From Alphaproteobacteria bacterium (lineage in GTDB: Bacteria; Pseudomonadota; Alphaproteobacteria; SP197): 64,000 bases of DNA. The translations under genes were made by a program, and so were the position numbers. The DNA is taken from positions 3,264,001-3,328,000 of the forward strand of contig OZ219747.1 in NCBI GenBank assembly GCA_964291265.2, in the 5' to 3' direction. Below are positions 26,353-64,000 of the stretch, piece after piece. Position 1 is the stretch's first letter; each line of letters starts with the position of its first letter. The notes under the pieces were generated by a model that was given only the letters and a program-made list of their open reading frames with translations, was not told the DNA's origin and did not search any database.

Positions 26353-27816
26353 TTATTCGACCGTTACCGCACAGTCTCCTCGGATCGAGGCCGTCGTCGA
26401 GGCTGCCTCGCACTGTTGAACGGCGCGTTGTGGTGTTGTCGTCGGTGCAGGTGAGAGCCATTGCTGAAGAGTCGAAAGCGGAGCCATTTCTTCACGTACT
26501 CAAAGTGAGCTCGCCTTGCTGCACGGGGCACAGCACTTCCATACAAGGTGCGCCAGCCACAAGGGTCAGGTTGGGTGCGAGACAAGCGAAGTCCACAGAC
26601 ACGCTGTTTGACTGCATGTTGGAAGGGTTATGAACGATACAACGGACCATGACGTGCCAACGCATACCTTGCGTTGGAGCGTCGATGGGGAAGTTGGGGA
26701 ATGTGAGTGACCCGCCGCCATCGTCATCGTGCGCTGCGGCGGAGTAAGCGTTCGGCCGTGCGGTGATGGCTGATTTTGGTTGGTTTGGGGCTTGCTGACT
26801 ATTGTCTGAGAAAGGGCTGGTAAATCGGTCTGGTCTCGATTATGGTCGGGGCCATGGAGACTTTCGACGAGACGTGCGGAGAGGCACAGCAGCTGACGGG
26901 AGGTGGCGACGGCCTATGTCTGTCGCCAGCGGCCTTGTCATGCGAGGCGCCTGACTGGCGTGCGCTCTATGAGGCGGAGCGGGTTCGTGCGGATGCGGCG
27001 GAAGCGAGCATGCGTGACCTGCGCTGTGCGGAGATTGACGCCCGTGCCCGTGCGGACACATTGCAGTTTGATCTCGACCACACTCGTGATGAGCTGGAGG
27101 CGGCTCGTGCGGACCTGGAGGCGGCTCGTACGGAGGTGCAGCAGGGACAGGACCTGGTGGAGGCGCTGGAGCAGGAAAGGGACGCTCTGAAGAGCCAGAA
27201 CGCTAAACAGAAGAGCGAGCTGAGGAAGCTGCGCGGGACGCGTGACAAGCACGCGAAGGCGCGCTTCGGGTCGAAGAGCGAGAAGCGGAAGAAGAAAGGC
27301 ACCGGGAACAAGCGGGGTCAGCAACCTGGCAAGAGCGGCCACGGGCGCACCCCGCGTCCGAAGCTTGAGGAGAAGCACGAGCGCCATGATCCACCGGCAT
27401 CGCAGCGCACGTGCCCGTGTTGCGGCGAGCCCTATGTGGCCAACGGCAGCCACGAGACCTCGATCATGGAGGTCCATGTCAAGGCTCATGTCCGGCGGAT
27501 TGACCGTGGGCGTTGGCGCCGTGGTTGTCAGTGTTCGTCGGCGCCTGGGGAGATCATCGCGCCGCCACCTTTGCGCTTGTTTGCGAATACCCCCTACGGC
27601 AACAGTGTCTGGGCATGCGTGCTCTATGAGCGCTTCGCCTGCTTGCGTCCCCTGCGCCGGGTCTCGCGATGGCTCAAGGACCAGGGACTGCCGATGGCGC
27701 CGGGAACAATCGCTGGCGGCATGAAGAAGATGACGCCGATGTTCGCGCCTCTCGCTCAGGCCATCCTCGATCATCAGAACCGGCTGACGGTGCGCCACGG
27801 CGACGAGGCCAGCTGG

Positions 27817-29735
27817 GTCGCGGTAGGGATGCGCATTGCTGCGCACCCCCCGCACAGATCCGGACATGGACGTTAATCCATCCGGCTCCTACCTCGGGTG
27901 CTTGACGGTAAACCGCTGGTCCGGCCATGGGTGGCGGATGGAGACGCGCGGCCAAAGAAGCTCGGTCATGCGCTCCAATCGCTTCCAGTCAAAGCAGTGG
28001 CGCTGGGAGCGGCGGCGGATCGCTCGCAGCCATAGGCGTTGCAGCCTTTGGCGGAACGTGCGCAGCCATCGGGTCGACCCCGGAACGGCGAAGTAGTTGG
28101 ACCAGCCATTGACAACTCGCCCAAGCCACATGCCGACCTCCCATATGTCGTGATGCCGTCGATTGCGAAGCACCTCCTCGATGCGCGCCAGGGTCCTTGC
28201 GACCCGTTTTGCGACCGGCTTGCGACCAAGCCTGAAGCGTCCTCTCCGGGTCTCCGTGCAAAAGTGCGTGAAGCCCAGGAAGTCGAACGTCTCCGGCCTG
28301 CCCGCCCCGCGAGATCGCCGGTTCGCCTTGGCAAACCGTCCAAACTCAACGAGACGGGTCTTGTCCGGGTGAAGGGTGAGACCAAAGCGGTCCAGCCTCT
28401 CCCGAACGTCGCGAAGGTATGTCTCCGCATCCCGCTTATGCTGGAACCCGACCACAATATCGTCCGCGTAGCGGACAATGATCGCTTCACCGTTCGGAAC
28501 CTTCGGACGCCATGCCTTGTGAAACCACAGATCGAGCACGTAGTGCAGAACCACGTTCGCCAGGCAGGGGCTGACAATGGCGCCCTGAGGCGTGCCCGCA
28601 CCGGTGTCGCTCCATGATCCGTCGGTCATGACGCCAGCGTTCAGCCACTTGCGGATCAGACGGATCACCCGCCTGTCGCCAATGCGATGCTCCAGGAACT
28701 TGATCAACCAATCCCTCGGGATTGTGTCGAAGTACCCCTGAATGTCCGCGTCGACTATCCAGTTGACCTTGCGCCGCTCGATCCCGAACGCCAGGGCGTC
28801 GAGAGCGTCATGCGCCCCTCGGCCCGGTCGGAACCCGTAGCTGAAGCCAAGGAACTCCACCTCATAAATCGGTGTCAGGATCACATCCACAACCGCCTTC
28901 TGGACGATCTTGTCCTCCAGTGCGGCAATCCCGAGCGGTCGTGTCCCGCCGTCCGGCTTGGGTATCTCAACCCGCCGAACCGGCGGCGCCCGGTACGCTC
29001 CCCCACGATGCAGGCGCGAGTGCAGATCAAGCAAGCGCTCGTCCAGACCCTCGCCATACGCCGCCCACGTCACGCCGTCGACACCTGCCGAGGCTTCCTT
29101 CTTCAAACCGAAGTAGGCCGCCCGGAGCGCGTCCGGCGTAATGTGATGGAAGAGTGCAGTGAGACGCTCCTTCGGGTTCCTCTCTGCAGCTTCCCGTATC
29201 CGGTCCGCCGCCTGTGGCACACTTGCCCGACACTGCGTTCGGTGCGTGCTTTGGCGTCCCGGATTCCCCTTGGTTGAGGCCCTTTCCTCCAGCGACTCCG
29301 CAGAAGCTGACGCTCCCTTGTTCGCCGCCTTCACCGGTCTTACGGCCCCATCCGACTTCTTCAAACCGTTCCTCATAGGCTTCGGCTTTCTCCTTTCCCT
29401 ACACGGTCCCGCCACGACAGGCGGGATAGTTCGAAGACCTCCCAGGGTCCCAACAGAAGGCGTGCGGACGTGCATGGGTTCTCCGACACCGCGGGGCTCG
29501 CCGACATCTCACCAAATCGATGCCTGCGATGTTGCCTTCGACCGATGCGAAAGCCTCGGCACCCCGAACAACGGACTTTTCGGTGCTCATTAGCCCTGCC
29601 CATCCGTACCGCTACCGACGCTTCGCCTGCCCCCTCGCGGGAACCGACGCACGGCTCGCGGAGAAACGTGGTTTGGTTACTCCTTCGTTTCAGGGGACTT
29701 TCACCCCCTGCCTTCCGCCAGTTCGCCTGGCACAC
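27817..29735 (-). mobile_element. Group II intron (1919 bp), antisense to tnpC
   Basis: 5' end GTGTGCC at 29735; DV GAGCCGGATG...CATGTCCGG; DVI ending CCCTACCGCGAC at 27817; removal restores DEASWR. Confidence 0.92.
27889..29376 (-). CDS. ltrA: Group II intron reverse transcriptase/maturase lacking an endonuclease domain
   Basis: GVDG, IPKPDGGTRPLGI, SYGFRPGR, ADIQGYFD, GTPQG, RYADD, FDFLGF, domain X. Confidence 0.95.
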   Translation of the reverse strand: MRNGLKKSDGAVRPVKAANKGASASAESLEERASTKGNPGRQSTHRTQCRASVPQAADRIREAAERNPKERLTALFHHITPDALRAAYFGLKKEASAGVDGVTWAAYGEGLDERLLDLHSRLHRGGAYRAPPVRRVEIPKPDGGTRPLGIAALEDKIVQKAVVDVILTPIYEVEFLGFSYGFRPGRGAHDALDALAFGIERRKVNWIVDADIQGYFDTIPRDWLIKFLEHRIGDRRVIRLIRKWLNAGVMTDGSWSDTGAGTPQGAIVSPCLANVVLHYVLDLWFHKAWRPKVPNGEAIIVRYADDIVVGFQHKRDAETYLRDVRERLDRFGLTLHPDKTRLVEFGRFAKANRRSRGAGRPETFDFLGFTHFCTETRRGRFRLGRKPVAKRVARTLARIEEVLRNRRHHDIWEVGMWLGRVVNGWSNYFAVPGSTRWLRTFRQRLQRLWLRAIRRRSQRHCFDWKRLERMTELLWPRVSIRHPWPDQRFTVKHPR

Positions 29736-31364
29736 CGCATCCCCCTCCCTCAAGGCCTCGGGGCGCTCGCAGAAGGCCTGGCTGTGGACCGCGGTCAGCG
29801 CCAACTCCGTCTTCTTCCTCATCGATCCGTCACGCAGCGCCCGGGTGGCCATGGTGCTGTTCGCCTCCACCAAAGGTGTCGTCTTCCTTGTCGTCGACCG
29901 TCACGCGGCCTACAAGAAACTGGAGCGCGTGCTCGATGGCAAGGTGATCCTCTGCTTTTGCTGGGCGCACTCCAGGCGCGATGTGATCGAGGCTGCGGCA
30001 GGCCAGGAGGGGCTGGAAGAGTGGTGCGACAGGTGGCTCGACAGGATCGCGCTGATCTACACACTGAATGGGCAACGGCTGAAGCACTACGATCCCGCAC
30101 GGAAGCGTCAGTCAGCGAGGTTCAATGCCCTGCAGAAGGACCTCCGTGCGGCCGTCGAGGCGCTGTTCAGGCAGGCTCAGGAGGAACTCGACGCCTTGCC
30201 CGAGTGCGTCTTTGTCGACCATCCCCAGGTGCCCATGGACAACAACCTGGCCGAGAGAACCCTCCGGGGTGCGGTGACCGCGAGAAAGCTGAACTTCGGC
30301 TCCGACAGCGAGGAGGGCGCCGCCTTCACCGCCATCATGTACTCGGTCATCGGCACCCTTGCCATGAACAACATCAATGTTCGGCGCTGGCTTCATGAGT
30401 GGCTTGAGGCCTGCGCGCAGAACGGCGGCAAGCCGCCGGATGACCTCGACCCGTGGCTGCCATGGTCGATGAGCCCGGAGCGCCGACGGGACCTCACGGA
30501 ACCGGGGTGATCGAGTGCCGTTACTACGGCCGTGACTTCACCGCGCACGAGATGGAGCTGTTGCGCTCCCTGATCACCCAGCACCCCACCCGTGCGGCCA
30601 TCGCCCGCGCCTTCTGCCGCGAGACCGGCTGGTACAAGCCCGACGGCGGCCTCAAGAACATGATGGCGAGTGTCACCTTCCTGGCCATGCACCGCGACGG
30701 CCTCATCACCCTGCCGCCACCCAAGCACCCGCCGGTCCGGCCCAAGCCCATCGTCTTCGGACCCGACAGCGAACCGCCACGCAGCGCGCCTCCCACAACC
30801 CTCGACGAGGTCCGCCCCCTTGCCGTCTCCATCGTCACAGGCGGCACCCGGGAAGGAAAGCTGTGGAACGAGTTCGTCGCCCGCTACCATTATCTCGGCT
30901 ACACGAGACTGGTCGGAGCCCAGATGCGCTACGCCTTCCATGATCGCAACGGAGCGCCCGTCGCCATGCTCGGCTTCTCCACCGCCGCCTGGAAAATCGC
31001 CCCGCGCGACACCTTCATCGGATGGACACCCGAACAGCGGCAGAAGAACCTGCCGCTGGTGGTCGATAATCCAAGGTTCTTGATCATGCCGTAGATGCCA
31101 TCATAACACCCCATCTCGCTTCAGGGTTGATTTATAACGATTTTCCATTTCGCCTCCTGTGTCAACGGCGTTTTGCCCCGCGTTTTTGCCCCGGTTCGCG
31201 GAGAATCGTCCTTCCCGATGTCTGTCGGCCCCCATGTCTGGCAAGGTTTTTGCGGGTATTCGGGATGATGTGTTCTGTGGTTGTCCACGTGCGGTCCGGG
31301 GTTCTGCCTTGCCGATGTCCTTGCCCTGCGAGCGAGGCGACATGCAGCCTGTGCTTCCGGTGGT

Positions 31365-31619
31365 ATGAGCGGGTTGCCGTCCATTGACCACGGTAACGTT
31401 ACCGGTGAATGCGGTCGCTTTGCCGCCAGCGCTCCCGGACATGGTAACGTTACCGTGTTCAATGGGGTTCCAGGTGTCATGGGTCCCGGCGGCATGAGCG
31501 GGTTGCCGTCCATTGACTACGGTAACGTTACCGATGAGCGCGGCCACCTCGCCGCCCAGCGTCCCCGGGCATGGTAACGTTACCGTGTCCAAGGGGGTTC
31601 CAGGTGTCATGGGTCCCGT
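31365..31619. repeat. Two tandem ~129-bp units, each a long inverted repeat built on the palindrome GGTAACGTTACC
   Basis: Palindrome at 31392, 31443, 31521, 31573; unit starts ATGAGCGGGTTGCCGTCCATTGAC at 31365 and 31494. Confidence 0.92.
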
Positions 31620-31934
31620 CCACAAGCCGCGCGGCGGTTCGATGTCCTTGAGGGCCTCGATGTCGGCCTCGACGATGATCTGCAGACGTTCTCCACAAGC
31701 CGTGTCGCGCAGGGAGTCGGGGAGACTGTCGAGACAGTCCTGATCATGCTCCTGCCATGCACCGAGCTCGGCCGCCGCATCGCGCCAGCGTTGCGCACGG
31801 GAGCGGCACTCGCAGGACTTTCGCTGGTGGACGGCAGGGATGCCGTATCTCTCGGCCTGCTCCGGATCACGGGGATGGAACCCGGTCATGCAAGCCGCTG
31901 CACGGACGGCCATGCAGCCTCGCCGGGCGGTCAC
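31607..31934 (-). pseudogene. Small accessory protein of the recombinase element, probably frameshifted near its end
   Basis: RSRAQRWRDAAAEL...LDSLPDSL...IEPPRG then GRDP* in another frame; GTGA overlap with the recombinase stop. Confidence 0.55.
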
Positions 31935-33985
31935 AACTCGAACTCGCCCTGGTTCGGGTCCGCGTCGGCGACGCTCCGGCAGCCGGACAGCGCCGCGACG
32001 ACCCGAGGGGCCTCCAGGTCCGCCGCTGCGATGGCCCAGGGCGCCCCGGTGCAGACCTGCCGTGCGGGCAGGATGCCCGTCCGGATCAGCCGGCGCACGA
32101 CCGAGGGATCGACGCCGAGCTGCGCCGAGGCCTCGCTGAGGGACAGTTCGCCGCGCTCCTGGCGTTCGCCCTCACGGTATACCGGAATGCCGCGACGGGA
32201 ACGGAAGACGCGCACCCGAACCCGGTTCCAGCCGTTGCCCTTGGTCGTCTTGCGGCCCATGAGGTTGAGAAGCCGGGCCATCTGCTCGTCGGGCAGCTGC
32301 CGGGCCAGTCCGGCGACCAGGTCCTCGACCTCCTTGTCGGACGTATAGCGATGCTCGCCGGTACGGAAGCGCTTCACCTCGATCTCGGTATGGTCGCCGC
32401 CGCGCCAGTGCAGAAGCAGGTGCACCGTGTCCTGTCGCATGCTGGCGGTGATATCCACCAGGGTCGCGCGCAGGATGTTCTTGCGCAGCTGCGGCGTTGC
32501 GGCCTCATGGGACCATGCGCGCTCCAGGTCGGCCCCCAGAGCCAGAAAGGCGTCACGGTCTGCGCACCCCGCTTCTCGCGCCTCGCGGGTCGCCTCGAGC
32601 GCCCGAAGCTGCTCTTCGCGCTCGCAGACCTCGGCCAGGCAGGCCTCCCACCGCGCCGCCAGGTTGTGGAGAATGTTGTGGTTGCCGGGATCAACCGCGT
32701 CAAACTGTGCCTGCGCACGACCGGCCTTGTACCGGGCTTCCTCCAGCGCCGAGGCGGCGAGGCGGATCCGCGCCGACGTATCGTCGCCGCGCCGCTCGAA
32801 CGCCTCCAGCGCGGCAGCCACGCCAAGGGGTTGCGCCGCAGCGAGAACGGCCGCGCTCACGGCCCCGTCGACCCGCACGCCGCCGAAGCCAATGCAGGTG
32901 CTGCCCCCCGTGACGACGTCACCCGGACATTGGTAGCGGTGCGACGTGCCGTTGTCCGCAATCTGCATCCGCCGGCCGCAGCAGCCGCAGCGCACAAGGC
33001 CGGCCAGAAGCGCCTTGCCGGCCCGCGGCGCCCCCCGGTTCCCCACGGTGTTCGCCTCGATCACCCTCCGGTTCCTCTCGTACTCGTCCCAGCCGATGTA
33101 GCCCTCGTGGCGGTCGCGCAACAGAACCGACCATGCGGCCTCGGGCTTCATGATCCCTCGGCGTACCTTCCTGGTCCCGCCAGCGTCAACCGTCACCTCC
33201 TGGCGCCGGCGCCCGTACACATAGGCGCCGGCGTAGAGCGGGTTGCTGAGCATCAAGGCCAGCGTCGAGTTCTGCGGCACCCGCCACGCGATCCCGCCAC
33301 CCTTGGGGTCGCGAACCGGGATCCTGATGTCGCGCTTGCGGAACCAGAGATGGACCTGACGGATGCTGCGCAGTTCGCGGAACTTCCGGAACACCAGGTC
33401 GATCGCGTCGCGCTGGTGCTGGTCCGGCGTCTTCTCGATGCCGTGACGGTCGACCTTCTCGAAGCCGGCCGGCAGGTGCAGGAACAACTCCCCGCGCTCG
33501 GCCAGCGCCTGGCGGCTCTCCAGGGACCGCTGGCGGAACACCGCAAGCTCCATGTCCGCAAACTGGCCCTTGAGACCCAGAAAGGCCCGGTCGTCGACCA
33601 TCGCTGGATCGTGGATCCGCTCGCGGTCGCCGACCAGGCAGCCGACGACGGCGCAGATCTCCAGAAGCGCGTGCCAGTCCCGACCATTGCGCGCCAGACG
33701 CGAGGCCTCAAGGGCCAGGACAAGGCCGACCGTGCCGCTGCACACGGCCTGCAGAAGGCGCTCGAAGCCCGGACGCCTCACCCCGCCGCCCGAGACGCCA
33801 AGATCGTCGTCGATCACCTCGACCCTCGCAAAGCCCAGCCCCCGGGCATGGTCCTCGAGGGCGTACTGCAGCTTGCGCCGCTCGACGTGGTTGCGCACCT
33901 GCATCTCGCTCGACTGGCGGATGTACACGATCGCCGAGCGCGCCAGGTGGCCGGCGGTCAGCCGCGCGTCACGCATCACCGTCAT
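31931..33985 (-). CDS. Large serine recombinase (resolvase + recombinase + Zn ribbon + C-terminal HTH)
   Basis: YIRQSS catalytic Ser, DDDLGVSG, EASRLARN, NPLYAGAYVYG, HEGYIGW, LAGLVRCGCCG. Confidence 0.93.
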   Translation of the reverse strand: MTVMRDARLTAGHLARSAIVYIRQSSEMQVRNHVERRKLQYALEDHARGLGFARVEVIDDDLGVSGGGVRRPGFERLLQAVCSGTVGLVLALEASRLARNGRDWHALLEICAVVGCLVGDRERIHDPAMVDDRAFLGLKGQFADMELAVFRQRSLESRQALAERGELFLHLPAGFEKVDRHGIEKTPDQHQRDAIDLVFRKFRELRSIRQVHLWFRKRDIRIPVRDPKGGGIAWRVPQNSTLALMLSNPLYAGAYVYGRRRQEVTVDAGGTRKVRRGIMKPEAAWSVLLRDRHEGYIGWDEYERNRRVIEANTVGNRGAPRAGKALLAGLVRCGCCGRRMQIADNGTSHRYQCPGDVVTGGSTCIGFGGVRVDGAVSAAVLAAAQPLGVAAALEAFERRGDDTSARIRLAASALEEARYKAGRAQAQFDAVDPGNHNILHNLAARWEACLAEVCEREEQLRALEATREAREAGCADRDAFLALGADLERAWSHEAATPQLRKNILRATLVDITASMRQDTVHLLLHWRGGDHTEIEVKRFRTGEHRYTSDKEVEDLVAGLARQLPDEQMARLLNLMGRKTTKGNGWNRVRVRVFRSRRGIPVYREGERQERGELSLSEASAQLGVDPSVVRRLIRTGILPARQVCTGAPWAIAAADLEAPRVVAALSGCRSVADADPNQGEFEL

Positions 33986-34398
33986 CGCCCGCCCCCTCCC
34001 GCAACGCCGCCATCACATGCTCGATCAGCGCCGCGACTGCCGGCTGCAGGGCCCGCCTCAGGTGCGGCCTGTGCCAGACCAATGGCGTCTTCTGGAACAG
34101 GTCCGTCCGGAACACCAGCGGTTCCGCGAGATTGTCCTTCATCGAGTTCCTCCTCTGTCTTCCGCAAGGAACCCAGGAAGGATGTCGCGAGATCATGCAG
34201 GTCCGCCAGCGCATCCAGGGACAGCCTCGGTGCCGCGCGAAGCTCGTAGCGCGCGGACTCCGGCAATATCATCCATTCCGCAAGCCGGTGCCGCTTACCT
34301 TGGGAATCAACGACTACGAGAACCGGACGACCGTGAAGCGACCGCCTCACCCGGCATGTCACGCGCTGCCCGGCCAGAGGATGAAAGCGGTAATGCAC
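33982..34398 (-). CDS. Small hypothetical protein upstream of the recombinase (Y4bD/DUF5372-like)
   Basis: HYRFHPLAG...LAEWM...PRLSLDALADL; overlaps the recombinase start. Confidence 0.55.
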   Translation of the reverse strand: MHYRFHPLAGQRVTCRVRRSLHGRPVLVVVDSQGKRHRLAEWMILPESARYELRAAPRLSLDALADLHDLATSFLGSLRKTEEELDEGQSRGTAGVPDGPVPEDAIGLAQAAPEAGPAAGSRGADRACDGGVAGGGGR

Positions 34399-35301
34399 CG
34401 TGATCTCCGCGCCAGGCGCAATGTGGGGATTCGCCGGGTAGCCAGCCCTGGATTTCTATCGCCAACCTTGGGTCCCACATCCTCGCCGTCATGCGACGCC
34501 GACTGTCCGATGACTGGACCAGACGCTACAACACCACACCGGTCCTCATCGAAACCTTCGTCCAGACACCGCGCTACACAGGCACCGTCTACAAGGCGTC
34601 AGGATGGATCCATGTCGGCACCACCAAAGGACGCGGACGCTACGATACGCACAAGAAATTCGACAAGCCCAAAAAGGACATCTGGCTGAGGCCTCTCCGC
34701 AAGGACTGGAAACGCATCCTCAACCGGTGAATATCACCAACAATCACCGCGCGACCGAACGCTTACGCGGCGGACGCTTCAACGACATGCCAAGGCCAAC
34801 AGGCATGACGCCGCCCGCGCCCAGAACACACGCGACGAGACCCTTGTCCCGCCCGGCGGATGGACCGTCGCTCTTCACCCCCGCGCGATGCGCAGGGAAC
34901 GTTCCGCCGAACGACGCAACAGGGCAGCCGTGCCCGAATACTCCGAAAAGCGTGCCTGAACAGGCATGATGCACCAGCAGTGGTCACTGAAACCGGCACG
35001 TTGAGAACCCGGGTCGCCTCAAGCATGCTCGGCCCCTGCCACATCGGCACTCCAAGCCCGAAATGGTCCTGGGGTCCGGGCGCGTATGTTGAACCAGGCC
35101 TCCGGATGGGTTATGGGTTGGTCTGTCAGGTTCCAGGTTCGCTGGGGCTTGGCCTTGCGGGCGCGGTGGCGGTCCGGATTCGCGACGGGAGAAGGGTCAT
35201 GATGGGGGCATTGGGCGAAGTCCAGGTGCATGACTTGTCGCTGCTGACCGGGACGGGTGTGAGTGCGAGTGCTTCGCGTGCGCGAACTCACAGGCTTTGT
35301 A

Positions 35302-35329: not shown

Positions 35330-35633
35330 GACTGAGCCGGAGGGCGCCTTCGGGAAGACCGCCCGCCCCCTGATCGCGGCATTCGCCACCTTCGCCGAAT
35401 TCGGGAGCGGCCTGAAAAATCCGCACCCGCGGGGGCATGGCGCCGTCCGCGCGAAGGGGAAACTTCGCAGCAGGAAGCCGAAGCTCTCGGACCGGCAGGT
35501 CCGGCAACTGCGACGCCTGCACGACACTGACGACTGCAACGTGAACGGCCTCGGCGAGGTGTTTCCTGTCTCCCGGCCTGCCGTATGTCGTACTCTTCAG
35601 CGAGCAACTGTTCCTGCTCGACCGGACCTTTGA
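35330..35633 (+). pseudogene. Small serine resolvase/invertase C-terminal remnant
   Basis: FATFAEF, RAKGKLRSRKPKLSDRQ, degenerate HTH_7 FPVSRPAVCRTL; catalytic N-terminus absent. Confidence 0.7.
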
Positions 35634-35647
35634 ACGGAGAACCACAT

Positions 35648-36763
35648 ATGCTGCGCTTCTGGACGACCTTCCTCATGCTTCTCCTCGCTCCGCTCGCGTC
35701 GACCGGGGCCGAGGTGCTGAAGCCGAAATTCGGCGACATCGACGGCGTCTTCTACGCGGATGTCTCCGGGGACCGCGAAGCCTGTCGACAGACGGTCAAG
35801 AGGATGGTGGTGCACTGTCTCCAGAACACGACCTTCATCAGCAACACGCTGAACCGGGAGTACCCGGAGTGCCTGCCGATCTTCACGGAGCAGTCGCAAT
35901 GGTGCGCGGACCATTTTCGTAACCAGACGTTCAAATGCGATGGTTCCGGCGAGGTTCGCATCGACGGCTTCACCGACTTTGCCTGCACGGTGACGGTCGT
36001 GGAGGAGGGCGAGGAGCCGGAGGACACACCCGGCATTGCCCCGGCCGACCGCTGGATGCAGGCGCGGACCCGGACGAATGTGCGCAGCGGCCCCGGCACC
36101 GACCACGCCCGTGTCGGGCTGCTGGAGGTCGGCGAGCGGGTCCATGTCACGGGCGAGGCCGGCGAGTGGCTGCGCATCGAGGTTCCGGACGGCAGTATGG
36201 CCTTCGTTCACGGCTCGCTGTTGACGGAGATGGCACCCGAGGCGGCGGATCAGGCGGAGGTCAAGGCCACGCCGGAGAGTCGGGACGCGACCGCCGCCCT
36301 ATCGCCGAAATGCGTCGGGATGAGCGAGGGCGCCGAATGCTGGATTGAACTCGCCGACCGGCCCGGCTGTTTTGTTTTCAGTCTCTACTACTCTCCCCCC
36401 GAGACGGCGACCTGGTCCGGCGAATGCCAGGACGGCCTCGCCGTTGGGCAGGGAACCTTGGGGCGGGAGTGGGAGTCCGCCTCCAGATCCGTCCAGGCCA
36501 CGGGCACGTTGGTGCGGGGCAAGGAGCACGGACACTGGGTCTTGCGCTGGGCTGACGAAGGCTGGGCTGACGGAGACATCTGGGAAGGTCCTTTTGTGGA
36601 CGGCAAGCTGCACGGCCACTGGGTCTTGCGCTACGCTGACGGAGGCGGCCAGGAAGGCCCTTATGTGGACAGCAAGCGGCACGGCCACTGGATCATGCGC
36701 TACGCTGACGGGTCCTCTGAGGAATGGGAGTATCGCAACGGCGAGCTTCTTCCACGTAACTGA
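35648..36763 (+). CDS. Secreted protein: Cys-rich N-domain + bacterial SH3 + MORN/YwqK-like repeats (paralog 1)
   Basis: GGAGA RBS, signal peptide, NVRSGPGTDH, WSGECQDGLAVGQG, repeats GPxVDxKxHGHW. Confidence 0.8.
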   Translation: MLRFWTTFLMLLLAPLASTGAEVLKPKFGDIDGVFYADVSGDREACRQTVKRMVVHCLQNTTFISNTLNREYPECLPIFTEQSQWCADHFRNQTFKCDGSGEVRIDGFTDFACTVTVVEEGEEPEDTPGIAPADRWMQARTRTNVRSGPGTDHARVGLLEVGERVHVTGEAGEWLRIEVPDGSMAFVHGSLLTEMAPEAADQAEVKATPESRDATAALSPKCVGMSEGAECWIELADRPGCFVFSLYYSPPETATWSGECQDGLAVGQGTLGREWESASRSVQATGTLVRGKEHGHWVLRWADEGWADGDIWEGPFVDGKLHGHWVLRYADGGGQEGPYVDSKRHGHWIMRYADGSSEEWEYRNGELLPRN

Positions 36764-36885: not shown

Positions 36886-36923
36886 TGCGGGGGGTGCGCA
36901 GCAATGCGCATCCCTACCGCGAC
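36886..36923 (+). mobile_element. Group II intron domain VI scar
   Basis: 38 bp identical to the 3' end of the intron at 27817-27854 (TGCGGGGGGTGCGCAGCAATGCGCATCCCTACCGCGAC). Confidence 0.88.
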
Positions 36924-37924: not shown

Positions 37925-38450
37925 TCAACTTGGCAGTCTCACGGGAACGTTCTGGTCCGGCTTCACGCCGAGCGGCTGGAAAGCTCGTTTCTGGACCGGG
38001 GTCGGCGCGATTACGACGGACAGCAGGCTTTCGCCGTGGACCGGCAGGCGCGGCTGGTTCAGCGCCATGCCCGAGAGACCGTCAAGCAGGGTGCGGAAGC
38101 TGTGCACGGACAGCCCGTCGGGGGTGAGCCTGGTGTTGGCCCTGACCTTCGCACTCTTCGAGACCGTGGCCCACCTTTCCACCGACGAGTTCCACCGCGC
38201 CCGAGCACCTTCGCGGTCGTCGTCCTCGGACAGCATCGGCGCGAGGCGCTGAGCGCATGTGCCATTCACCATGCCGGGCCAGCATGCACAGGACCATGTG
38301 GGCACGGACGTGATCCGGCGAACAGACGTAGACCGGACGGATCCGGAGGTGGCTCCTGGCGTTCCGGAACGCGCGCTCCACGCCTGCGAGGCTCTTGGTG
38401 AACCTCCACCGCCTCATCGCGGCCGATCGTCTCCGGACCGAGACTGAGCA
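37925..38450 (-). pseudogene. IS1634 family transposase C-terminal remnant
   Basis: KSLAGVERAFR, IRPVY...HVRAH, VHSFRTLL, PTPVQKRAFQPLGV. Confidence 0.8.
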
Positions 38451-38538
38451 GGGATGCGCATTGTCTCGATGGCAGGTAAACTCTTCGTTCGGACATGGAG
38501 ACCGCCCACCGGGTGGGGCAGCCCAAGACAGGGGAGAT

Positions 38539-40197
38539 ATGAGAATGCGAGTGATGTTGATCGTCGGGGCGCTGACCTTCGCGACAGTGGCCGGGAGCAC
38601 GGCTGCGGAGGCAGACGAGGCGTGGATCGATAGCTTCGCGTTCGCCTGCACGACGCCGGAGGGCGAGACCCTGAAGCCGAAGTTTGGAGACATCGACGGG
38701 ATCTTCTACCCGGACCTCCCGGCGCAGCGGGAGCAGTGCCTGGAGACGATCCAGCGCAAGATCGTGCACTGTCGCGATAACGTGGACTTCGGATCCAACA
38801 CGAAGAACGAGACGTATGCGCCCTGCCTGCCGATCTTCGCCGAGCAGGCCGAGGCCTGCGTCGGGCACTTCACCTTCGAGCGGAGCAAGTGCGACGCCGG
38901 CGGGTACGGCACGGAGGCGGCGGGTCAGGCGGAAGACGAGGCGGCGCCGGAGGAGTCCCATTCGGTGGCGACGCTGGATGAGACGATGGAAGTGACGACA
39001 CGCGCCAACGTGCGTTCAGGTCCCGGTACCGGCTACGACGTGCTCGGCACGCTGGATGCGGGCGTCGGCGTACGGGTGACGGGCGTTGTCGAGGGCGGCA
39101 AGTGGATGCGCGTGGACCTGCGCGAGGACGGAGGGCCAGCCTTCATCCACACCTCGTTGCTGAAGGAGGTGGCGCCCGAGGCGGTGGATCAGGCGGAGGT
39201 CGTGGACACGCCGGAGAGTCAGGACGCGACCGCCGCCCTATCGCCAAAATGCACCGGGTCAGTACTCCCGGTCTACGGATGCTGGTTTGAATTCGACGAC
39301 CCGCCCGGCTGTTATGCCTTCACTCCCTATTATACTCCCGAGGAGACGGGGACCTGGTCCGGCGTATGCCAAGACGGCCTCGCCGTCGGGCAGGGAACTT
39401 GGGAGGAGACGACGGGTTACTATTCTAATGGCCAGGCTACGGGTACGCTGGTGCGGGGCAAGATGCACGGCCCCTGGGTTTGGCGCTCCGATTCAGTCGT
39501 TCAGGAAGGCCCTTATGTCGATGGCAAGATGCACGGCTGCTGGGTCATTCGCTGGCTTTATGGTGACAAATCCGTCGAGGAAGGTCCTTTTGTTGACGAC
39601 AAGAGGCACGGCCGCTGGGTCTTTCGCTTTCCTGATGGCTTCAATGGAATCTTCCGCGATGACAATGATGATGGCTACTTCGATGACCATGAAAGGTACT
39701 ACCGCAACGGTAAGGAGGTCGCGTGGAATGCGTTATCTTCGGATGGTGCCGGATGCGACGATGTTCGGATGGCGCCGCCAGATGCGACGATGGAGGAAAC
39801 GGCACCCGAGGCGTCGGACGCACCGCTCGAGCCCGTCGGGCCGAACTGGATTGTCGCGGAAAACCAGCCCTGCCAACTCCGGAATCCTTATCCCGTGCCT
39901 GACGAGACCGTGACATGGACGGGACCTTGCGTGGATGGCAAGGCTTCGGGTCAAGGGCGGTTTGTCTGGCGCCACAGCGACGGCGTGGACACGTACGAGG
40001 GCAGCATGCGCGACGGTGCGCCCCACGGCCACGGGACCTATACCCAAGGGTTCAACGGCTTCCGTTACGAGGGCGAATGGCGCGATTTCAAGAGGCACGG
40101 CCAAGTGATCCTTACCCTGCCCGACGGCGAAGCCCAGACCTGTGAATGGCGCGATGACGAGAGGGTCGACGGGACCTGCGAATGGCATAGCCGCTGA
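38539..40197 (+). CDS. Secreted protein: Cys-rich N-domain + SH3 + two MORN-like blocks (paralog 2)
   Basis: GGAG RBS, signal peptide, LKPKFGDIDG, NVRSGPGTGY, WSGVCQDG, WTGPCVDGKASGQG, YEGEWRD. Confidence 0.8.
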   Translation: MRMRVMLIVGALTFATVAGSTAAEADEAWIDSFAFACTTPEGETLKPKFGDIDGIFYPDLPAQREQCLETIQRKIVHCRDNVDFGSNTKNETYAPCLPIFAEQAEACVGHFTFERSKCDAGGYGTEAAGQAEDEAAPEESHSVATLDETMEVTTRANVRSGPGTGYDVLGTLDAGVGVRVTGVVEGGKWMRVDLREDGGPAFIHTSLLKEVAPEAVDQAEVVDTPESQDATAALSPKCTGSVLPVYGCWFEFDDPPGCYAFTPYYTPEETGTWSGVCQDGLAVGQGTWEETTGYYSNGQATGTLVRGKMHGPWVWRSDSVVQEGPYVDGKMHGCWVIRWLYGDKSVEEGPFVDDKRHGRWVFRFPDGFNGIFRDDNDDGYFDDHERYYRNGKEVAWNALSSDGAGCDDVRMAPPDATMEETAPEASDAPLEPVGPNWIVAENQPCQLRNPYPVPDETVTWTGPCVDGKASGQGRFVWRHSDGVDTYEGSMRDGAPHGHGTYTQGFNGFRYEGEWRDFKRHGQVILTLPDGEAQTCEWRDDERVDGTCEWHSR

Positions 40198-45832: not shown

Positions 45833-46022
45833 ATATGTCCGTGATGAAAACTTGGCTCATCTGTGCACTATTGCCTTCATTCAAGGAATCTAGTGTGGTA
45901 GACTCTACTCTTCAGTCAATGGCCTGCTACGGAGGTAACGATGGCCGGTAACACCAAAGAACTGCAGTTTTGTTCATGCGCGCCCATAAGCAACTCCACA
46001 TTCTGGTGATCGAGACAACGCC

Positions 46023-46478
46023 ATGACCAGCATCGCCGAACACTACTGTGGCAAAATTCCTACTGGGTGTGTTGGAGGTCCGCCGAAGTGTCCGACGCCA
46101 GGCATGGACGTAGAGTTCTCGAATGTTTGCCACAGACATGTCCGAATTCCACAATGGACAATCATAACCTGTTCAGCAGCATCTATTTTTATTGGTTTCG
46201 TGATGAGCGTATTGTTGTTCTGGGTCACCTACGCGGAACAACAGAACATTGACAAAAAATGGGTGTTTTTTAGCCAGAGATTTGAAGCGTTTTTGTCGGA
46301 TACTGGAAATTTCCCAATTTTACTTCTTGTTGTGTTCGTTGTCATTTGGCATTTGGCAACAGTGGTTGCATGCCATAGAAAATATACATCTATTTCAGAC
46401 TATATTGTCGTCACTTTCGCTGTTCCCATGACAGGCATGACGGTTTTCGCAACGGTAGTACGGAGCATTATTGAGTAA
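46023..46478 (+). CDS. Low-GC hypothetical membrane protein (about 3 TM)
   Basis: Three hydrophobic stretches; visibly AT-rich; start uncertain. Confidence 0.5.
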   Translation: MTSIAEHYCGKIPTGCVGGPPKCPTPGMDVEFSNVCHRHVRIPQWTIITCSAASIFIGFVMSVLLFWVTYAEQQNIDKKWVFFSQRFEAFLSDTGNFPILLLVVFVVIWHLATVVACHRKYTSISDYIVVTFAVPMTGMTVFATVVRSIIE

Positions 46479-46530
46479 AACGATACGAAGTACTATTGAA
46501 TACAGCGTAAATAATGTAAGGAGGTTTGCA

Positions 46531-47091
46531 ATGCGCACAAGACATCTGACATTGGCTTTGCTATTCGGAATGGCAAGCGGCAGCAGTGCTGTCGTTGGTC
46601 AAGATTGCGTGTATGTCGAACCACACAATTGGAGGAGTGAAATGAAATTGGGCTTCGCCTATATTTTTAACCCTAAGCTTGCAGCAGAGGCAGAGGTTTT
46701 TCACATCTACAGTAATGAGAGTATATCCGGTCTATTTAAATCGGACGGTTCCCAGCTTAGTGAGCAGGACGGCTATGATGGCAATGAGGGACCGAATTTG
46801 ATGGTTTCGTGGGTGAATCCAGATACCGAACACGCTCTGATCTTGAGCGACCCCGCTTCACGTGGTGTCGCCAATGGCAACGAGATGGAACATGGAACAT
46901 GGGATGGTACTCTAGGTGGCCCTGAGGCGACGCAGTTCAGCGAGTGGCCGGTGTACTGGGCAGCTCAGGAAGAGTTGGAAGGAACCAATGTAGTGCCAGA
47001 GTACATGCTGATTCACTGGCCTGATGAGCATTCAATATCAACGACGGACTGGGACGAACTGATCGAAAAAGTTTGTAGTGCGTCGGAGTAA
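46531..47091 (+). CDS. Low-GC hypothetical secreted protein
   Basis: AGGAGG RBS, signal peptide MRTRHLTLALLFGMASG, acidic mature part with terminal Cys pair. Confidence 0.65.
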   Translation: MRTRHLTLALLFGMASGSSAVVGQDCVYVEPHNWRSEMKLGFAYIFNPKLAAEAEVFHIYSNESISGLFKSDGSQLSEQDGYDGNEGPNLMVSWVNPDTEHALILSDPASRGVANGNEMEHGTWDGTLGGPEATQFSEWPVYWAAQEELEGTNVVPEYMLIHWPDEHSISTTDWDELIEKVCSASE

Positions 47092-59870: not shown

Positions 59871-62800
59871 CTACCAGTTGAGGGCGCCGCGCAGCATGAG
59901 GCTGTCTTCGCTGACCGGCCCCGGCCGGTGCGCGCCCTCGAGGCCGAGGGAGAGTCCCGCGCCGAGGCGGTAGCGGGCGCCGAGCCGCAGGGTGCGCCCG
60001 CCGGTCTCCGCCAGGCTCAAGCCCGCCCAGGGGGTGAGCACCGCGAGAGGCCCCGGACCGGCAAGGCCGAAGCCGTGGCCCACCTCCGCCTCCAGGCGGC
60101 CCTCTGCCGATGTCGTGTCGGAGACGGCCGCGGGCAGGCCGTGGTCGAACAGTTCTCCCAGATCGCTCTCGGTGCGCCCGTGCGCGGGACCGAAGGCGAG
60201 GAAGGTTCCAAGCCCGTCGGCCCCGGGGGCGAGGCGCACCAGGGCGCTCACACCCCACTCGTCACGGTCCGCCTCGTGGGCCGCCAGGAGCCGCGTGCGC
60301 AGCTCCGCCGTCAGACCCTCCGCCGGGTCCCGCCATGTCACGCTCGCCCCGGCCTCGAGGCCCGCCCCCTCGGCGGCGTCGCCCGCGTCATGGCGCACCC
60401 CCGCCTCCAGGGCCGGGGTCAGCGTCGCACCGCTTGCCAGCGCATGCTCGTGCGACCCCTCCAGCAGCAGCCGCAGGCGGGTCGTCCTCGCCGTCAGTCC
60501 CGCCAGGCCGTCATCGGCCTCCGTGCGCAGGCGCGCCAGCGCGCCCTCGCCCTTGACCGCAAGGCGCGTCATGCCGCCCTCGATGAGGTCCGCATGCTCG
60601 ATGAGGACGCTGCGGGCGCCCGCCGCCGCGCTCCACTGCGCCAGGTCCGTGCTGCGCACCGGCGCCCCCTCCTCGGCAATCCGCACCTCGCCGGTCCCGT
60701 AGCCGAGGCTCGCCCACAGGGTCGAGCCGTCCGCCAGCAACCACGCCGCATAGGGATGCACCGACGTGATCGTGGTCTCGTGGACGCCCTTCACCTGGTC
60801 CGTCTGCGTGTCCAGCTCGCCCCGCACATGGGAGAGCGCCGCCCCGGCCAGAAGGTCGGGGCGCAGGCGCACGTCCGCCCCCAGCTGCGCCGACCACAGG
60901 CCGCCGTCCCACGACACGCCGCCTTGCGAACCCGACAGCGACAGCCACGCGCCCCGGCCCCACACGGCCAGCGGCGGCGCGGAGGCCTCGCCCTCGGCGC
61001 CCGCCGCCAGGGTGAAGGAGGCGCCGTCCAGCACCTCGGCCATGCTCGGGCCGGGCTCCTCCGGGTGCGGCGACGCCCACGCGTCCTCCACCGGTGACGG
61101 CAGGGCGCCGAACTGCACCGTGCCGCCCCCCTCGCCGGAGGCCACCGCCTCGATGCGACCCGTCACCGCCCCCAGGGTCTGCGACATCGCCGCCGCCGCC
61201 ACGTGCGGCAGCACCGCCGCATTCACCCGGTTCGACCTTGCCATGGACCCCGCCGCCCGGTCGCGCAGAACGCCAAGCGCCGTGGCGTCGTTCCCCACCA
61301 CGTAGTCCGCCGCATCGTTCAGCGTGATGCGGTAGGCTTCCGCGCCTTCCGCATCCGCATCGGCCGCCGTCGGGATCGTCACCACGCCCGTTCGCCGCCC
61401 CGCGGCGCCGAACACCGCATCGAACGAACGCGGACCCAGGCCGCCTGGAACGTCCCCGGCATCGAAGCCGCCGCCGTCCCGGGACGCCAGGGTCAGGCTC
61501 ACCCTCAGGCTGCCCGTCAGCGCCCGGTCGGCGCTCACCACGAGGCGGATGGCCTCGCCCTCGGTCACCGCCGCCGGATCCTGCGCCAGGGTCAGCACCG
61601 GCAAGAGCGTTGTGTCCGTCACCGTCACCGCCACCGAATCGATGGTCACCGAAGCGTAGCCGCCGCCGCTCGCACCATGGGTCAGCGTCGCCGTGTCGTC
61701 GGTCGTGTCCTCGTCACGGGCCGCGCGCACCGTCACCCGTTGCGCCGTGTCCCAGTTGGCCGTGGTGAAGGTCAGGCTCGCCGGTTCCACCGTCACCTCG
61801 CCCGAGGCGCCGCCCACCGTCACCGTGACCTCGCCCGAGGGCTCGGTGTCCAGCACCACCGTGTAGGCCGCACTGCTCCCCTCCGCCACCGTCAGCGCGG
61901 TCGGCGTCACCGTCACGCTTGCGTCTGCGGTGGGCGTCGTGCCGCCTCCGCCACCGCCACCGCCGCCTCCGCCGGGCGCCACCGGCGCCGCCGGCGTCGC
62001 CGTCACCGGCGCATCCGGACCGGCGCCGTTGCCGGCCCCGTTCACCGCGCGCACCTCGAACTGGTAGGCAGTGCCGTTCGTCAGACCGCTCACCTCGTAG
62101 CTGGTGGTGCCCGCAGCGGAGCCGGGAATGTCCTCCCACGCGCCCCAGTCGTCGCTGCCGGCCTTCCGCCGCACCTGCCACTTGGTGATGGTCGGATTGT
62201 CCGGGGCGGTCCAGCTCAGCGTCACCGAACCGTTGCCCGCCGCGCCGGCAAGGCCTGTCGGTTTCCCGGGCGCCACATCCTTCTCCGCCACGCTCACCAC
62301 CACAGAGGCGATGGTCACCGAGGCGTAGCCGCCGCCAGACGCGCTGTGGGTCAGCGTTACGGCGGCGTCCGTCGTCGTGTCCGTGTCCGTGCCTGCGTTC
62401 ACCGTCACCGTCTGCGGCTGGTTCCAGTTGGCTCTGGTGAAGGTCAGCGACGCGCCCGTCACCGTCACGTCCCCCGACGCGCCCGCCACCGTGATCGTCA
62501 CATCCGATGTCGGCGGCGTGTTCAGCCGCATCGTGTACGTCCTGCTGCCGCCTTCCGCCACCGTCAGCGCCGCCGTCGACACTGTCACCCCCGGCGTATC
62601 GGCCACCGTCACGTCCACCGTGCCCGCATCGGGAATCGCATCCGCAGAAGCCCCCGTCAGCCGGAAGGCGTGGTTGATCACCGCCGTGCCGTTCGCCACA
62701 CCGGTCACCGTCACCGTCCGCGCCGTGCTGTAGTTGGTGGTGGTGAAGGTCAGGCTCGCCGGACTGACCCGCGCCGCCGCCGTGGCGTCGCTCGTCACCC

Positions 62801-64000
62801 GCAGCGTCCCCGCATAGGCCTTCGTCAGCGCCACCGTGTAGGTCGCCGTGGAACCGGGCGCCACCGTCACCGGCGTCCCGGTCAGCGTGAGCGCCGCCGT
62901 GGTGTCGTCCTTGAAGGTCACCGTACGGATGTTCGACCAGGGACCCTGAAGGTTACCCGTTCCCCCGGCGACCCCCGCCATGCGATAGCCCGTCGCCCGA
63001 ACCCGGACCTCGACCGATGCCCCGTCAGGATAGTTCAGCAGAAGCCGATTGTTGCGAGAGCCCGGATTCTGTCTGGCACTCGCCTGGTTGAGACTGTGAT
63101 CCGTCCAGGTGCTTGCCCCCTTCAGCCGGGTCTGCGCTCTCCACCAATGGAACTTGGCCGCGTCTTTCACATAGTCGTCCGCATCCGATAACTCGTTCGA
63201 GCCGCCGGCATGGGTCCAGGTCAGGTCGATCTGCCCGTTCGTCGTCGAAGTCGCCGCCGTCAGCACCGGGGCCGCCGGATCGGTCTTCGCCGTCACCTGA
63301 TCCGACCACACCGACTGCACACCGGGACTGACCGCCGCGAACAGGCGGAACGTGTAGTCCGTGCCCTTCGTCAGACCCGTCACCCGGACGCTCGTCCTGC
63401 TTGCGCCCGTGAGCGTCGTGGTCGTGTTCCAGCCGCCCGTGCTCTTGTACTGATAGCCCCAGCTCGTGATCGGAATGCCCGTCAAGGCGCTCCAGCTCAG
63501 GGTGACCGAGGCATCGCCCCCCGCCGCCGTCAGAACCGGCTTGGGAACCGTATTCGTCGGCGTCGCCTTCACCTGGTCCGACCACACCGACTGCACCCCG
63601 GGACTGACTGCCGCAAACAGCCGGAACGTGTATTCCGTGCCGATCGTCAGTCCCGTCACCGTGGTGCTCGTCGTGCTGGCGCCCGTGACCGTCCGGGTCC
63701 TGATCCAGCTGCCGCCCGCGGGCTTGTACTGATAGCCCCAGCTCGCTACCGTCACACCCGACAGCGCGCTCCAGCTCAGGGTGACCCTGGCGTAACCCGC
63801 TTCGGCGCTCAGCACCGGCTTGGGAACCGCCGCCGACGCCGACGGCGTCGCCTCCACCACCGCCGACGCGGCGCCGTTGCCGCCGCTGTTCCGCGCCCGG
63901 ATGCGGAAGCGGTACTCGCTGTCGTTGTCCAGACCCGTCACCGTGTGGGTCGTGGTGTCGGCGTCCGAATCGGGAATCGCGGTCCAACTGCCCCAGGCGG
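59871..64000 (-). CDS. Large autotransporter adhesin with fibronectin type III and Calx-beta-like repeats (5' end outside the window)
   Basis: FN3 motifs VTLSW...VTGLT.GT.Y.F, two near-identical FN3 units 276 bp apart, poly-Gly linker, C-terminal beta-barrel ending in W. Confidence 0.88.
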   Translation of the reverse strand, partial: AWGSWTAIPDSDADTTTHTVTGLDNDSEYRFRIRARNSGGNGAASAVVEATPSASAAVPKPVLSAEAGYARVTLSWSALSGVTVASWGYQYKPAGGSWIRTRTVTGASTTSTTVTGLTIGTEYTFRLFAAVSPGVQSVWSDQVKATPTNTVPKPVLTAAGGDASVTLSWSALTGIPITSWGYQYKSTGGWNTTTTLTGASRTSVRVTGLTKGTDYTFRLFAAVSPGVQSVWSDQVTAKTDPAAPVLTAATSTTNGQIDLTWTHAGGSNELSDADDYVKDAAKFHWWRAQTRLKGASTWTDHSLNQASARQNPGSRNNRLLLNYPDGASVEVRVRATGYRMAGVAGGTGNLQGPWSNIRTVTFKDDTTAALTLTGTPVTVAPGSTATYTVALTKAYAGTLRVTSDATAAARVSPASLTFTTTNYSTARTVTVTGVANGTAVINHAFRLTGASADAIPDAGTVDVTVADTPGVTVSTAALTVAEGGSRTYTMRLNTPPTSDVTITVAGASGDVTVTGASLTFTRANWNQPQTVTVNAGTDTDTTTDAAVTLTHSASGGGYASVTIASVVVSVAEKDVAPGKPTGLAGAAGNGSVTLSWTAPDNPTITKWQVRRKAGSDDWGAWEDIPGSAAGTTSYEVSGLTNGTAYQFEVRAVNGAGNGAGPDAPVTATPAAPVAPGGGGGGGGGGGTTPTADASVTVTPTALTVAEGSSAAYTVVLDTEPSGEVTVTVGGASGEVTVEPASLTFTTANWDTAQRVTVRAARDEDTTDDTATLTHGASGGGYASVTIDSVAVTVTDTTLLPVLTLAQDPAAVTEGEAIRLVVSADRALTGSLRVSLTLASRDGGGFDAGDVPGGLGPRSFDAVFGAAGRRTGVVTIPTAADADAEGAEAYRITLNDAADYVVGNDATALGVLRDRAAGSMARSNRVNAAVLPHVAAAAMSQTLGAVTGRIEAVASGEGGGTVQFGALPSPVEDAWASPHPEEPGPSMAEVLDGASFTLAAGAEGEASAPPLAVWGRGAWLSLSGSQGGVSWDGGLWSAQLGADVRLRPDLLAGAALSHVRGELDTQTDQVKGVHETTITSVHPYAAWLLADGSTLWASLGYGTGEVRIAEEGAPVRSTDLAQWSAAAGARSVLIEHADLIEGGMTRLAVKGEGALARLRTEADDGLAGLTARTTRLRLLLEGSHEHALASGATLTPALEAGVRHDAGDAAEGAGLEAGASVTWRDPAEGLTAELRTRLLAAHEADRDEWGVSALVRLAPGADGLGTFLAFGPAHGRTESDLGELFDHGLPAAVSDTTSAEGRLEAEVGHGFGLAGPGPLAVLTPWAGLSLAETGGRTLRLGARYRLGAGLSLGLEGAHRPGPVSEDSLMLRGALNW

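Follow-up and report, generated by a model that had tools for sequence, protein, structure and literature searches.

REP/REPIN doublets consist of two palindromes about 40 nt apart that form a hairpin, arranged in tandem units and present as many dispersed extragenic copies. Insertion sequences (IS) carrying transporters or other passengers, together with MITE-like IS derivatives, constitute another general class. As for proteins reading short palindromes, the EPEC defence-island repressor RptR is described as a 79-residue, 9-kDa, all-helical homodimer (PDB 9R2Z) that represses its own promoter via a series of short palindromes, with the authors calling it bZIP-like (PMC12255303). Pap1 contacts DNA containing TTACGTAA through N86, Q90 and R94 (PDB 1GD2; PMC3111461), and within the IS110 group bridge RNAs are mostly located in the left end (PMC11208160).

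The window analyzed here, i.e. the whole stretch of 64 kb, contains two tandem units with four short palindromes between them. We found that these units lie in a deleted IS110 remnant inside a recombinase element, with the four palindromes being likely duplex operators of a 96-residue, basic-helix-containing putative repressor that is predicted to form a homodimer; we put the probability of this reading at roughly 0.7. An operator array for the small proteins was one of the options raised in a first-pass annotation of the window, and sequence comparison leads us to the same suggestion, with the 96-residue product of an IS110 passenger gene as the candidate protein.

The repeat units and the nested elements that hold them

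The hairpin arms were located as the first-pass annotation had claimed, at 31381-31403/31443-31465 with 1 mismatch and a 39-nt loop, and at 31510-31532/31573-31595 with 4 mismatches and a 40-nt loop. Its statement that the four palindromes GGTAACGTTACC are invariant was also confirmed, with 24 of 24 palindrome positions identical between units that agree in 114 of 130 positions overall, an outcome that by our own arithmetic, and taken alone, has a likelihood of ~0.03 by chance. The inner GCGG...CCGC stem that it described was present in both window loops, but was not kept in relatives. Besides the four copies of GGTAACGTTACC the window has no sites of the family motif GTNACGTNAC introduced below. 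Across the 4.8-Mb genome the 12-mer GGTAACGTTACC occurs 23 times versus 0.024 expected under a 4th-order Markov model, and these repeats are thus not due to chance; all 23 are found in six loci, each with the 96-residue gene or its remnant. An open frame running through the units from an ATGA overlap was considered and rejected as a gene, the 52-, 21- and 130-nt indels seen in relatives being mostly not multiples of three. The features of the locus are as follows.

30453..31090, plus strand: 5' half of a DruA/DUF4338-like gene (PF14236), split by the recombinase element
31089..34447, minus strand: large-serine-recombinase element, 3357 bp plus one CC core (CC at 31089-31090 and 34446-34447), hosting the insert
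31228..31889, minus strand: mini-IS110 insert, 662 bp, of which 607 bp match at 90% the right part of a 1971-bp IS110
31228..31355, minus strand: IS110 right end, last few bases differing from the core-proximal sequence of the parent
31356..31487, minus strand: second unit, 129 bp, a tandem duplicate (most relatives have one unit only)
31392..31403, unstranded: palindrome GGTAACGTTACC, likely operator
31443..31454, unstranded: palindrome GGTAACGTTACC, likely operator (start 31443)
31486..31617, minus strand: gene-proximal unit, 130 bp, starting within the last codons of the 96-residue gene
31521..31532, unstranded: palindrome GGTAACGTTACC, likely operator
31573..31584, unstranded: palindrome GGTAACGTTACC, likely operator, the first past the stop-codon position
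31607..31844, minus strand: dead copy of the 96-residue passenger gene, first 18 codons lost and a 1-nt insertion near the 3' end
31838..31873, minus strand: IS110 transposase gene fragment, 36 bp, between two deletions, 33/36 identity to the parent
31866..31889, minus strand: IS110 left-end remnant, 20/24 nt matching (read from printed sequences), shortened by a deletion at CCCGTGAT microhomology
31931..33985, minus strand: large serine recombinase, 684 residues (Pfam Resolvase, Recombinase, Zn ribbon and HTH_17)
33982..34398, minus strand: small upstream ORF, DUF5372-like (PF17342, E 1.2e-4, 22.5 bits, below the Pfam cut-off of 25)
34448..34730, plus strand: 3' half of the DruA/DUF4338-like gene (PF14236 on 34491-34730), frame restored across the CC core

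The borders of the recombinase element were clear from three observations: joining its flanks restores the interrupted reading frame of the DruA/DUF4338-like gene, identical CC ends are found on the second copy in the genome, and contigs from runs X1 and X3 jump over precisely these 3357 bp (X1, X2 and X3 being three runs of one study). The insert within it was delimited by one contig of run X2 that skips exactly 31228-31889, with a 2-nt overlap, one side of this contig being 34 nt and its match, at 85% likeness, possibly stemming from a related organism. This 662-bp insert is a twice-deleted IS110 derivative, having both ends and a piece of the transposase gene of IS110; it consists of the left end, the transposase fragment and the 607-bp right part, and the repeats belong to this remnant. 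In the dead passenger gene, start and basic helix were removed by a deletion at GGCATCC, and the base inserted at 31624 is missing from other contigs. On its own the remnant can probably not move, as its right-end bases differ from those of the parent; at its joint the 2-nt overlap reads GC where the parent core is CT, the junction bases differ and the site is unlike the targets of the parent. A joint dropping about one unit was seen in all three runs, with a side of only 26 nt that may stem from IS110 relatives.

The first-pass annotation had regarded the repeats as the best candidate for an undescribed component of the recombinase element. For the units to be a native, functional part of that element one could point to both of its genomic copies carrying the insert (3 palindromes in the second copy, 4 in the window), which means that it was carried through at least one transposition, and to other recombinase elements of the genus in which a family gene is intact and, in some (L039 and L045), preceded by a site. 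Homologous elements, however, lack the palindromes: no GTNACGTNAC site was found in any of the ten loci with a recombinase that were retrieved from other genomes (0/10, two of these loci having <900 nt flank and three partial genes), and in the four closest (L001-L004, from one genome, 86-87% at the nucleotide level) all of 31228-31889 was absent, with the recombinase stop region joined directly to the terminal 143 bp. This absence is what that annotation had itself named as refuting its proposal, and together with the insert-free form in run X2 and the IS110 ends and transposase fragment of the insert it makes a native role hardly credible. The repeats are thus not native to the recombinase element.

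Several further features of the surroundings were seen. The mini-IS110 is the innermost of a nest of four elements, comprising an IS66 unit, a group II intron, the recombinase element and the mini-IS110 itself; the IS66-type transposase (window 26842-30510) is interrupted by the group II intron with an intact RT (27817-29701), this intron being the sole Rfam match over 26-36 kb, and multiple copies of the IS66-DruA-like unit exist in the genome. The second copy of the recombinase element (G000:C2:2534769-2548593, L013) is split by a 10.5-kb insertion including an IS21 element, and its array has 3 palindromes owing to a deletion. At 35585-36763 and 38395-40197 the window encodes two paralogous SH3-domain proteins that look secreted and have MORN-like repeats; next to them a tyrosine-integrase remnant holds a 38-bp intron-end piece (36886-36923). 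The GC content drops sharply at 46001-47000 (0.47), and 60001-64000 at the window end is a GC-rich (0.70-0.76), skewed stretch.

The 96-residue passenger family and its linked site

The parent IS110, 1971 bp in size as taken from the empty site and present in 4 copies in the genome, encodes a transposase with DEDD_Tnp_IS110 and Transposase_20 domains, and has a CT core, a left non-coding end of ~310 nt and a 2-nt overlap at the empty site. It holds the same repeat units directly behind its 96-residue gene, starting in the last codons thereof, with the array ~170-360 bp from the right end. In three of the four intact copies (G000:C2:2594629-2596600, 2668813-2670790 and 3032848-3034820) the left end occupies an identical site, where a group II intron copy terminates, and two copies (2591488-2593465 and 2594629-) are inverted, 1.2 kb apart. 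A variation in unit number, for which the first-pass annotation had suggested to look, was evident among the IS110 relatives, with 1 to 4 palindromes per element: in most of them a single unit holds two palindromes spaced by 52 bp, in some there is just one palindrome, in one relative the loop contains a degenerate third copy, and the parent and the window copy have four each.

Elsewhere in the genome we found 36 full-length copies of the 96-residue gene, of which the IS110 accounts for 4 (one intact gene lying at G000:C2:2669202-2669492, minus strand) and an IS21 family for 32. Homologues of the protein numbered 1415 when clustered at 90%; at 50% identity and E up to 1e-10 there were 859 clusters. 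No named family was found in Pfam (also at E 0.1), NCBIfam or PHROGs; the profile phrog_10506, of unknown function, matches 25 of 43 members, covering in the first of them the N-terminal 29 residues. ESM Atlas gave hypothetical-protein clusters only, at a recognition of 2272, i.e. below the 2300 mark, and a tblastn search of the plasmid collection with the protein gave no match. In a class-wide search only 2 of 400 other genomes had matches, so the family is patchy among the genomes searched. A second domain architecture among longer homologues was considered and dropped, the 20 that we inspected out of 150 looking like mis-called starts or chance fusions. We found no description of the family in the literature covered, with most subscription journals and ISfinder being outside that coverage.

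The AF2 model of the protein (mean pLDDT 85.4) has helices at residues 5-17, 34-57, 61-64, 67-77 and 81-84, with 16 residues linking helix 5-17 to the dimer domain. A homodimer was predicted, from our own alignment, with a score of 0.61 versus 0.00 for the best control; solved homodimers reach the mark applied in 20 of 30 cases and single chains in 1 of 23. The runs agree in at least 77% of contacts, with partner pLDDT of at least 70. The predicted interface comprises residues 34-93 only, leaving the basic helix 5-17 free, and its closest pairs (48 with 34, 41 with 41) indicate an antiparallel arrangement. The protein is thus predicted to be a two-fold symmetric homodimer with two free basic helices. 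The consensus of the basic helix is T-x-A-E-[KR]-Q-x-R-Y-R, and the C-terminal dimer domain ends in PPRG[YF]GRD. A PDB sequence search gave nothing at E 10, and Foldseek gave no match to PDB or BFVD at E 0.001.

The gene was closely linked to a palindrome. The exact motif GTNACGTNAC, which was derived from the very loci used for the count, lies within 100 nt of the gene in 74 of 91 loci (upstream in 61, downstream in 14 and both in 1), as compared to 1 among 137 windows taken at a distance and to 0.2 on average after shuffling (max 3); the 91 loci were what remained of 130 full-length matches after dereplication to 93 and removal of 2 with short flanks. It is absent in the other 17, approximately ten of which show, in the printed flank, a site with one mismatch. 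For 56 of the 61 upstream sites the distance to the start codon is 8-22 nt, and the site usually abuts the ribosome-binding site; a TATAAT-like hexamer directly precedes it in 7 of 61 (controls 0, 0 and 1). In the clade of the host genus the site is mostly found 29 nt past the stop codon. Among held-out loci from two more distant genomes, 1 of 13 had an exact site; ten further G297 copies have versions with 1-2 mismatches at the same place, as read by eye, and look decayed. Genome G297 (L188-L208) has at least 11 decayed gene copies, each with a degenerate palindrome of the C..G type ~25 nt past the gene end, and from these degenerate palindromes it follows that the downstream position arose in an R-type lineage too (K- and R-types being defined by residue 8, see below).

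We further asked which elements carry the linked gene. The neighbour scan covered 72 of 96 extracted ORFs, 63 of them upstream, and these 63 comprised 23 IS21, 20 IS110, 3 serine recombinase, 2 IS3, 1 IS66, 6 other and 8 without match; since the linkage holds across such unrelated element types, the site follows the 96-residue gene and not any transposase. This bears on whether the array is instead bound by a host factor, the transposase or the recombinase, which would make it an architectural or end-binding site. In IS families it is common for transposases to bind sub-terminal repeats, and the array does lie near the IS110 right end, at the distance given above. An association with the gene in IS21, IS110, IS3, IS66 and serine-recombinase elements, as well as in phage contigs with unrelated enzymes, argues against such a binder, as does the finding of GTAACGTTAC at no other place in the host genome, and we consider it very improbable.

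In the 5.3-kb IS21 family, home to 32 of the 36 full-length copies, the site is present solely as a variant with 2 extra central bases (72 occurrences). The heavily amplified element (G000:C2:1520514-1525839, L012, and ~35 further copies) encodes IstA, IstB, a DUF3991-Toprim gene and the 96-residue gene, in addition to an upstream cysteine-rich ORF ending in a similar basic helix. It also has its own, independent tandem duplication of 346-370 bp comprising the 3' half of the 96-residue gene, at the same place as the units of the IS110.

Probable duplex sites, hairpins and a proposed mode of regulation

Selection on structure or binding had been suggested from the invariance of the palindromes in the two units of the window, and a wider alignment bore this out for the palindromes: over 16 distinct units the column conservation was 0.95 in the palindromes, 0.79-0.85 in the outer arms and 0.73 in the loop. 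The first-pass annotation had also offered a repeated non-coding RNA or a cruciform signal. A structured RNA or ssDNA hairpin at the right end of the IS110, modulating transposase expression or recombination with the palindromes acting as its stem, would be in line with the fold of the array minus strand (z = -2.97), with outer-arm columns (0.79 and 0.85) above the loop, with pairing in 87.4% of cells over the 23 pairs of the arms, and with 9 cells changed on both sides versus 4.6 when shuffled (6/500), a value from 16 related units only and, according to the note of the tool, of a kind that related sequences reach in 5-25% of unconstrained sets. Within the IS110 group an element with a small RNA gene behind the transposase gene is on record (PMC12288879), and the Ssr9 RNA downstream of the ISPpu9 transposase reportedly modulates transposase expression or recombination.

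The covariation was marginal, however, and open to explanation by kinship: in the RNAalifold consensus the covariation term was 0.04, none of the 14 pairs was compensatory and the inner stem was absent. There was no Rfam match to the array, and single-palindrome versions without the long hairpin persist, one such allele being present in 8 copies in genome G009. A check for loop complementarity, also proposed in the first-pass annotation, gave no match to att, donor or target beyond shuffles (longest 5-6 nt), and we rejected a bridge or guide RNA on the same grounds, its loop matches to target and donor being equal to those of shuffled sequences. The long hairpin needs no RNA function, since a palindrome copied in tandem is itself an inverted repeat; quasi-palindromes also homogenize through template switching. 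The parent IS110, moreover, has its long left non-coding end together with the CT core, and the bridge RNAs of the IS110 group are mostly left-end features (PMC11208160). An RNA or ssDNA function is for these reasons unlikely. The best reading is that the hairpin is a by-product of duplicated duplex sites, with an RNA stem leaving the single-palindrome and upstream forms unexplained.

A reading of half-sites in duplex DNA is expected from the finding that the two N positions of the motif vary independently, with 30 of 80 sites being asymmetric and 21 of these unable to pair even as G-U. We also analyzed phage contigs picked solely by the peptide pattern T-x-A-E-K/R-Q-R-R-Y-R (31 K-type and 62 R-type, dereplicated to 20 and 44, with a few chance non-coding matches left in), whose proteins share the basic helix only and differ from the 96-residue family beyond it. 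Within 250 nt upstream in the 20 K-type loci the half-site GTNAC was found 81 times versus 15.3±3.6 (other side 31 versus 11.7), and in the 44 R-type loci 82 times upstream versus 29.4±5.7 and 144 times downstream versus 37.6±5.5, numbers that could partly reflect peptide repeats as many of these half-sites are within coding sequence. The full GTNACGTNAC had 4, 0, 15 and 15 sites in these sets, as compared to ~0.1 each, and the phage contig L231 has the identical 12-mer. Contigs L231, L228, L249, L059 and L060 contain small basic-helix genes with one or two GTNACGTNAC just upstream, at promoter-like spacing, and phage genes of replication type have runs of the half-site inside the gene directly after the helix.

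Residue 8 of the protein correlated with the outer base pair of the site, which was G..C in 15 of 17 cases with Lys (K-type) and C..G in 57 of 61 with Arg (R-type), although the match was not clean in the phage set. The tally was made on a quick tree, and the AU test on a tree of 35 of the 91 rows with residue 8 masked. We did not accept the match as proof of co-evolution, as a single origin of K was not rejected (AU p 0.267). We nonetheless predict from these sequence patterns that residue 8 would set the outer base-pair preference, K for G..C and R for C..G.

Taken together, the 96-residue protein likely binds GTNACGTNAC palindromes as a bZIP-like autoregulator. Each free basic helix would enter the major groove at one GTNAC half-site, in the fashion of bZIP proteins, and in most relatives, having a single upstream site that abuts the ribosome-binding site, binding would give plain autorepression. 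In the host-genus clade the site lies 29 nt after the stop codon, is doubled at a distance of 52 bp and is doubled again in the window. No sigma-70 promoter or terminator was found at the window array. Bound dimers there may act as a roadblock that damps transcription of the transposase-passenger operon into the right end; this is the weakest step of the mechanism and a tentative one, with the odds against it. The window array itself would be a hitch-hiking relic, bindable only in trans through the 36 full-length gene copies elsewhere, and our best guess as to why IS elements keep the gene is that it may damp element transcription.

The downstream arrays could alternatively be neutral products of slippage or duplication, even in the intact IS110, with the palindrome being a real operator in the family at large. 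The freely varying number of palindromes would fit with this, as would the inclusion of the last codons of the gene in the duplication, the independent duplication of 346-370 bp at the same place in the IS21 family, and the loss of the gene in the window copy. The high conservation of both palindromes of the unit (0.95, with the loop at 0.73) speaks against it, and so do the 14 clade loci that keep the site 15-81 nt after the stop codon; since an exact upstream site is missing from 13 of these 14, it is apparently the downstream one that works. We accordingly consider a neutral origin improbable and prefer the view of the palindromes as operators also in the clade arrays.

Comparison with known systems

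The analyses correct the assignment of the repeats, which are neither a part of the recombinase nor a guide RNA, and provide an unannotated family of IS passengers with a concrete candidate function, in the form of a 96-residue protein, a 10-bp site and a specificity prediction for one residue. Should the binding prove true, a widespread bacterial basic-helix reader of bZIP-type palindromes would join the very few described, such as RptR, raising the question of why unrelated insertion sequences repeatedly capture one small regulator near their right end. A bolder and rather unlikely extension would be that this bZIP-like dimer family serves insertion sequences in common as an exchangeable control module whose copies in one cell cross-regulate in trans, since IS110, IS21, IS3, IS66 and recombinase elements have reader and site in common, with arrays as sinks or roadblocks tuning the genome-wide transposition load, and with a basic helix that reads CRE/PAR-type sites using Pap1-like residues and may be a bacterial root of, or a parallel to, the bZIP basic region.

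With regards to the elements, the parent resembles IS621-type IS110 elements (PMC11208160) in its DEDD and Tnp20 domains, its CT core, the length of its left non-coding end and the overlap of 2 nt at its empty site, but unlike these it has the extra 96-residue gene and the palindrome array in its right end, and the window copy is non-autonomous, having neither the left non-coding end nor the transposase. As in passenger-carrying and MITE-like IS, a passenger gene lies between transposase and end, and an internally deleted derivative is nested in another element; the difference lies in one passenger family, with its own site, being common to at least five unrelated element types. Two palindromes ~40 nt apart that form a hairpin, in tandem units, are also the hallmark of REP/REPIN. 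That assignment was rejected, as the 23 copies are found in six loci, always behind one gene, and not dispersed intergenically; no RAYT was seen near the array among the ORFs scanned.

RptR and the 96-residue protein are alike in their size (~9-11 kDa), as helical homodimers (here predicted) and in the short palindromes beside their own genes, and two splayed basic helices on one short palindrome are described for RptR, in which the C-terminal helix 4 reads TAGCTA and which controls restriction-modification islands (PMC12255303). The 96-residue protein has, by contrast, an N-terminal basic helix, a C-terminal dimer domain, a site of 10-12 bp and an insertion-sequence setting. Membership in the RptR family was rejected based upon the position of the recognition helix, the TAGCTA site and the linkage to restriction systems.

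The likeness to eukaryotic bZIP proteins of the Pap1/Yap type concerns a dimer on adjacent half-sites (here inferred), the basic helix and the N/Q(+4)/R(+8) spacing. In R-type members, with N-A-E-R-Q-x-x-Y-R, the +4/+8 spacing is the same as that of the Pap1 contacts and the commonest site contains TTACGTAA; Pap1 has Phe at +7. The N-x3-Q-x3-R spacing of bZIP proteins and a TTACGTAA-type site are thus found in the 96-residue family, but the Asn is not conserved, its position being variable and occupied by Pro in the host clade, and there is no leucine zipper continuous with the basic helix. We did not assign the family to bZIP, given the lack of a continuous parallel zipper, of a Pfam match at E 0.1 and of a PDB sequence match at E 10, and its likeness to Pap1 concerns the spacing of residues in the basic helix and the type of site that this helix is predicted to read.
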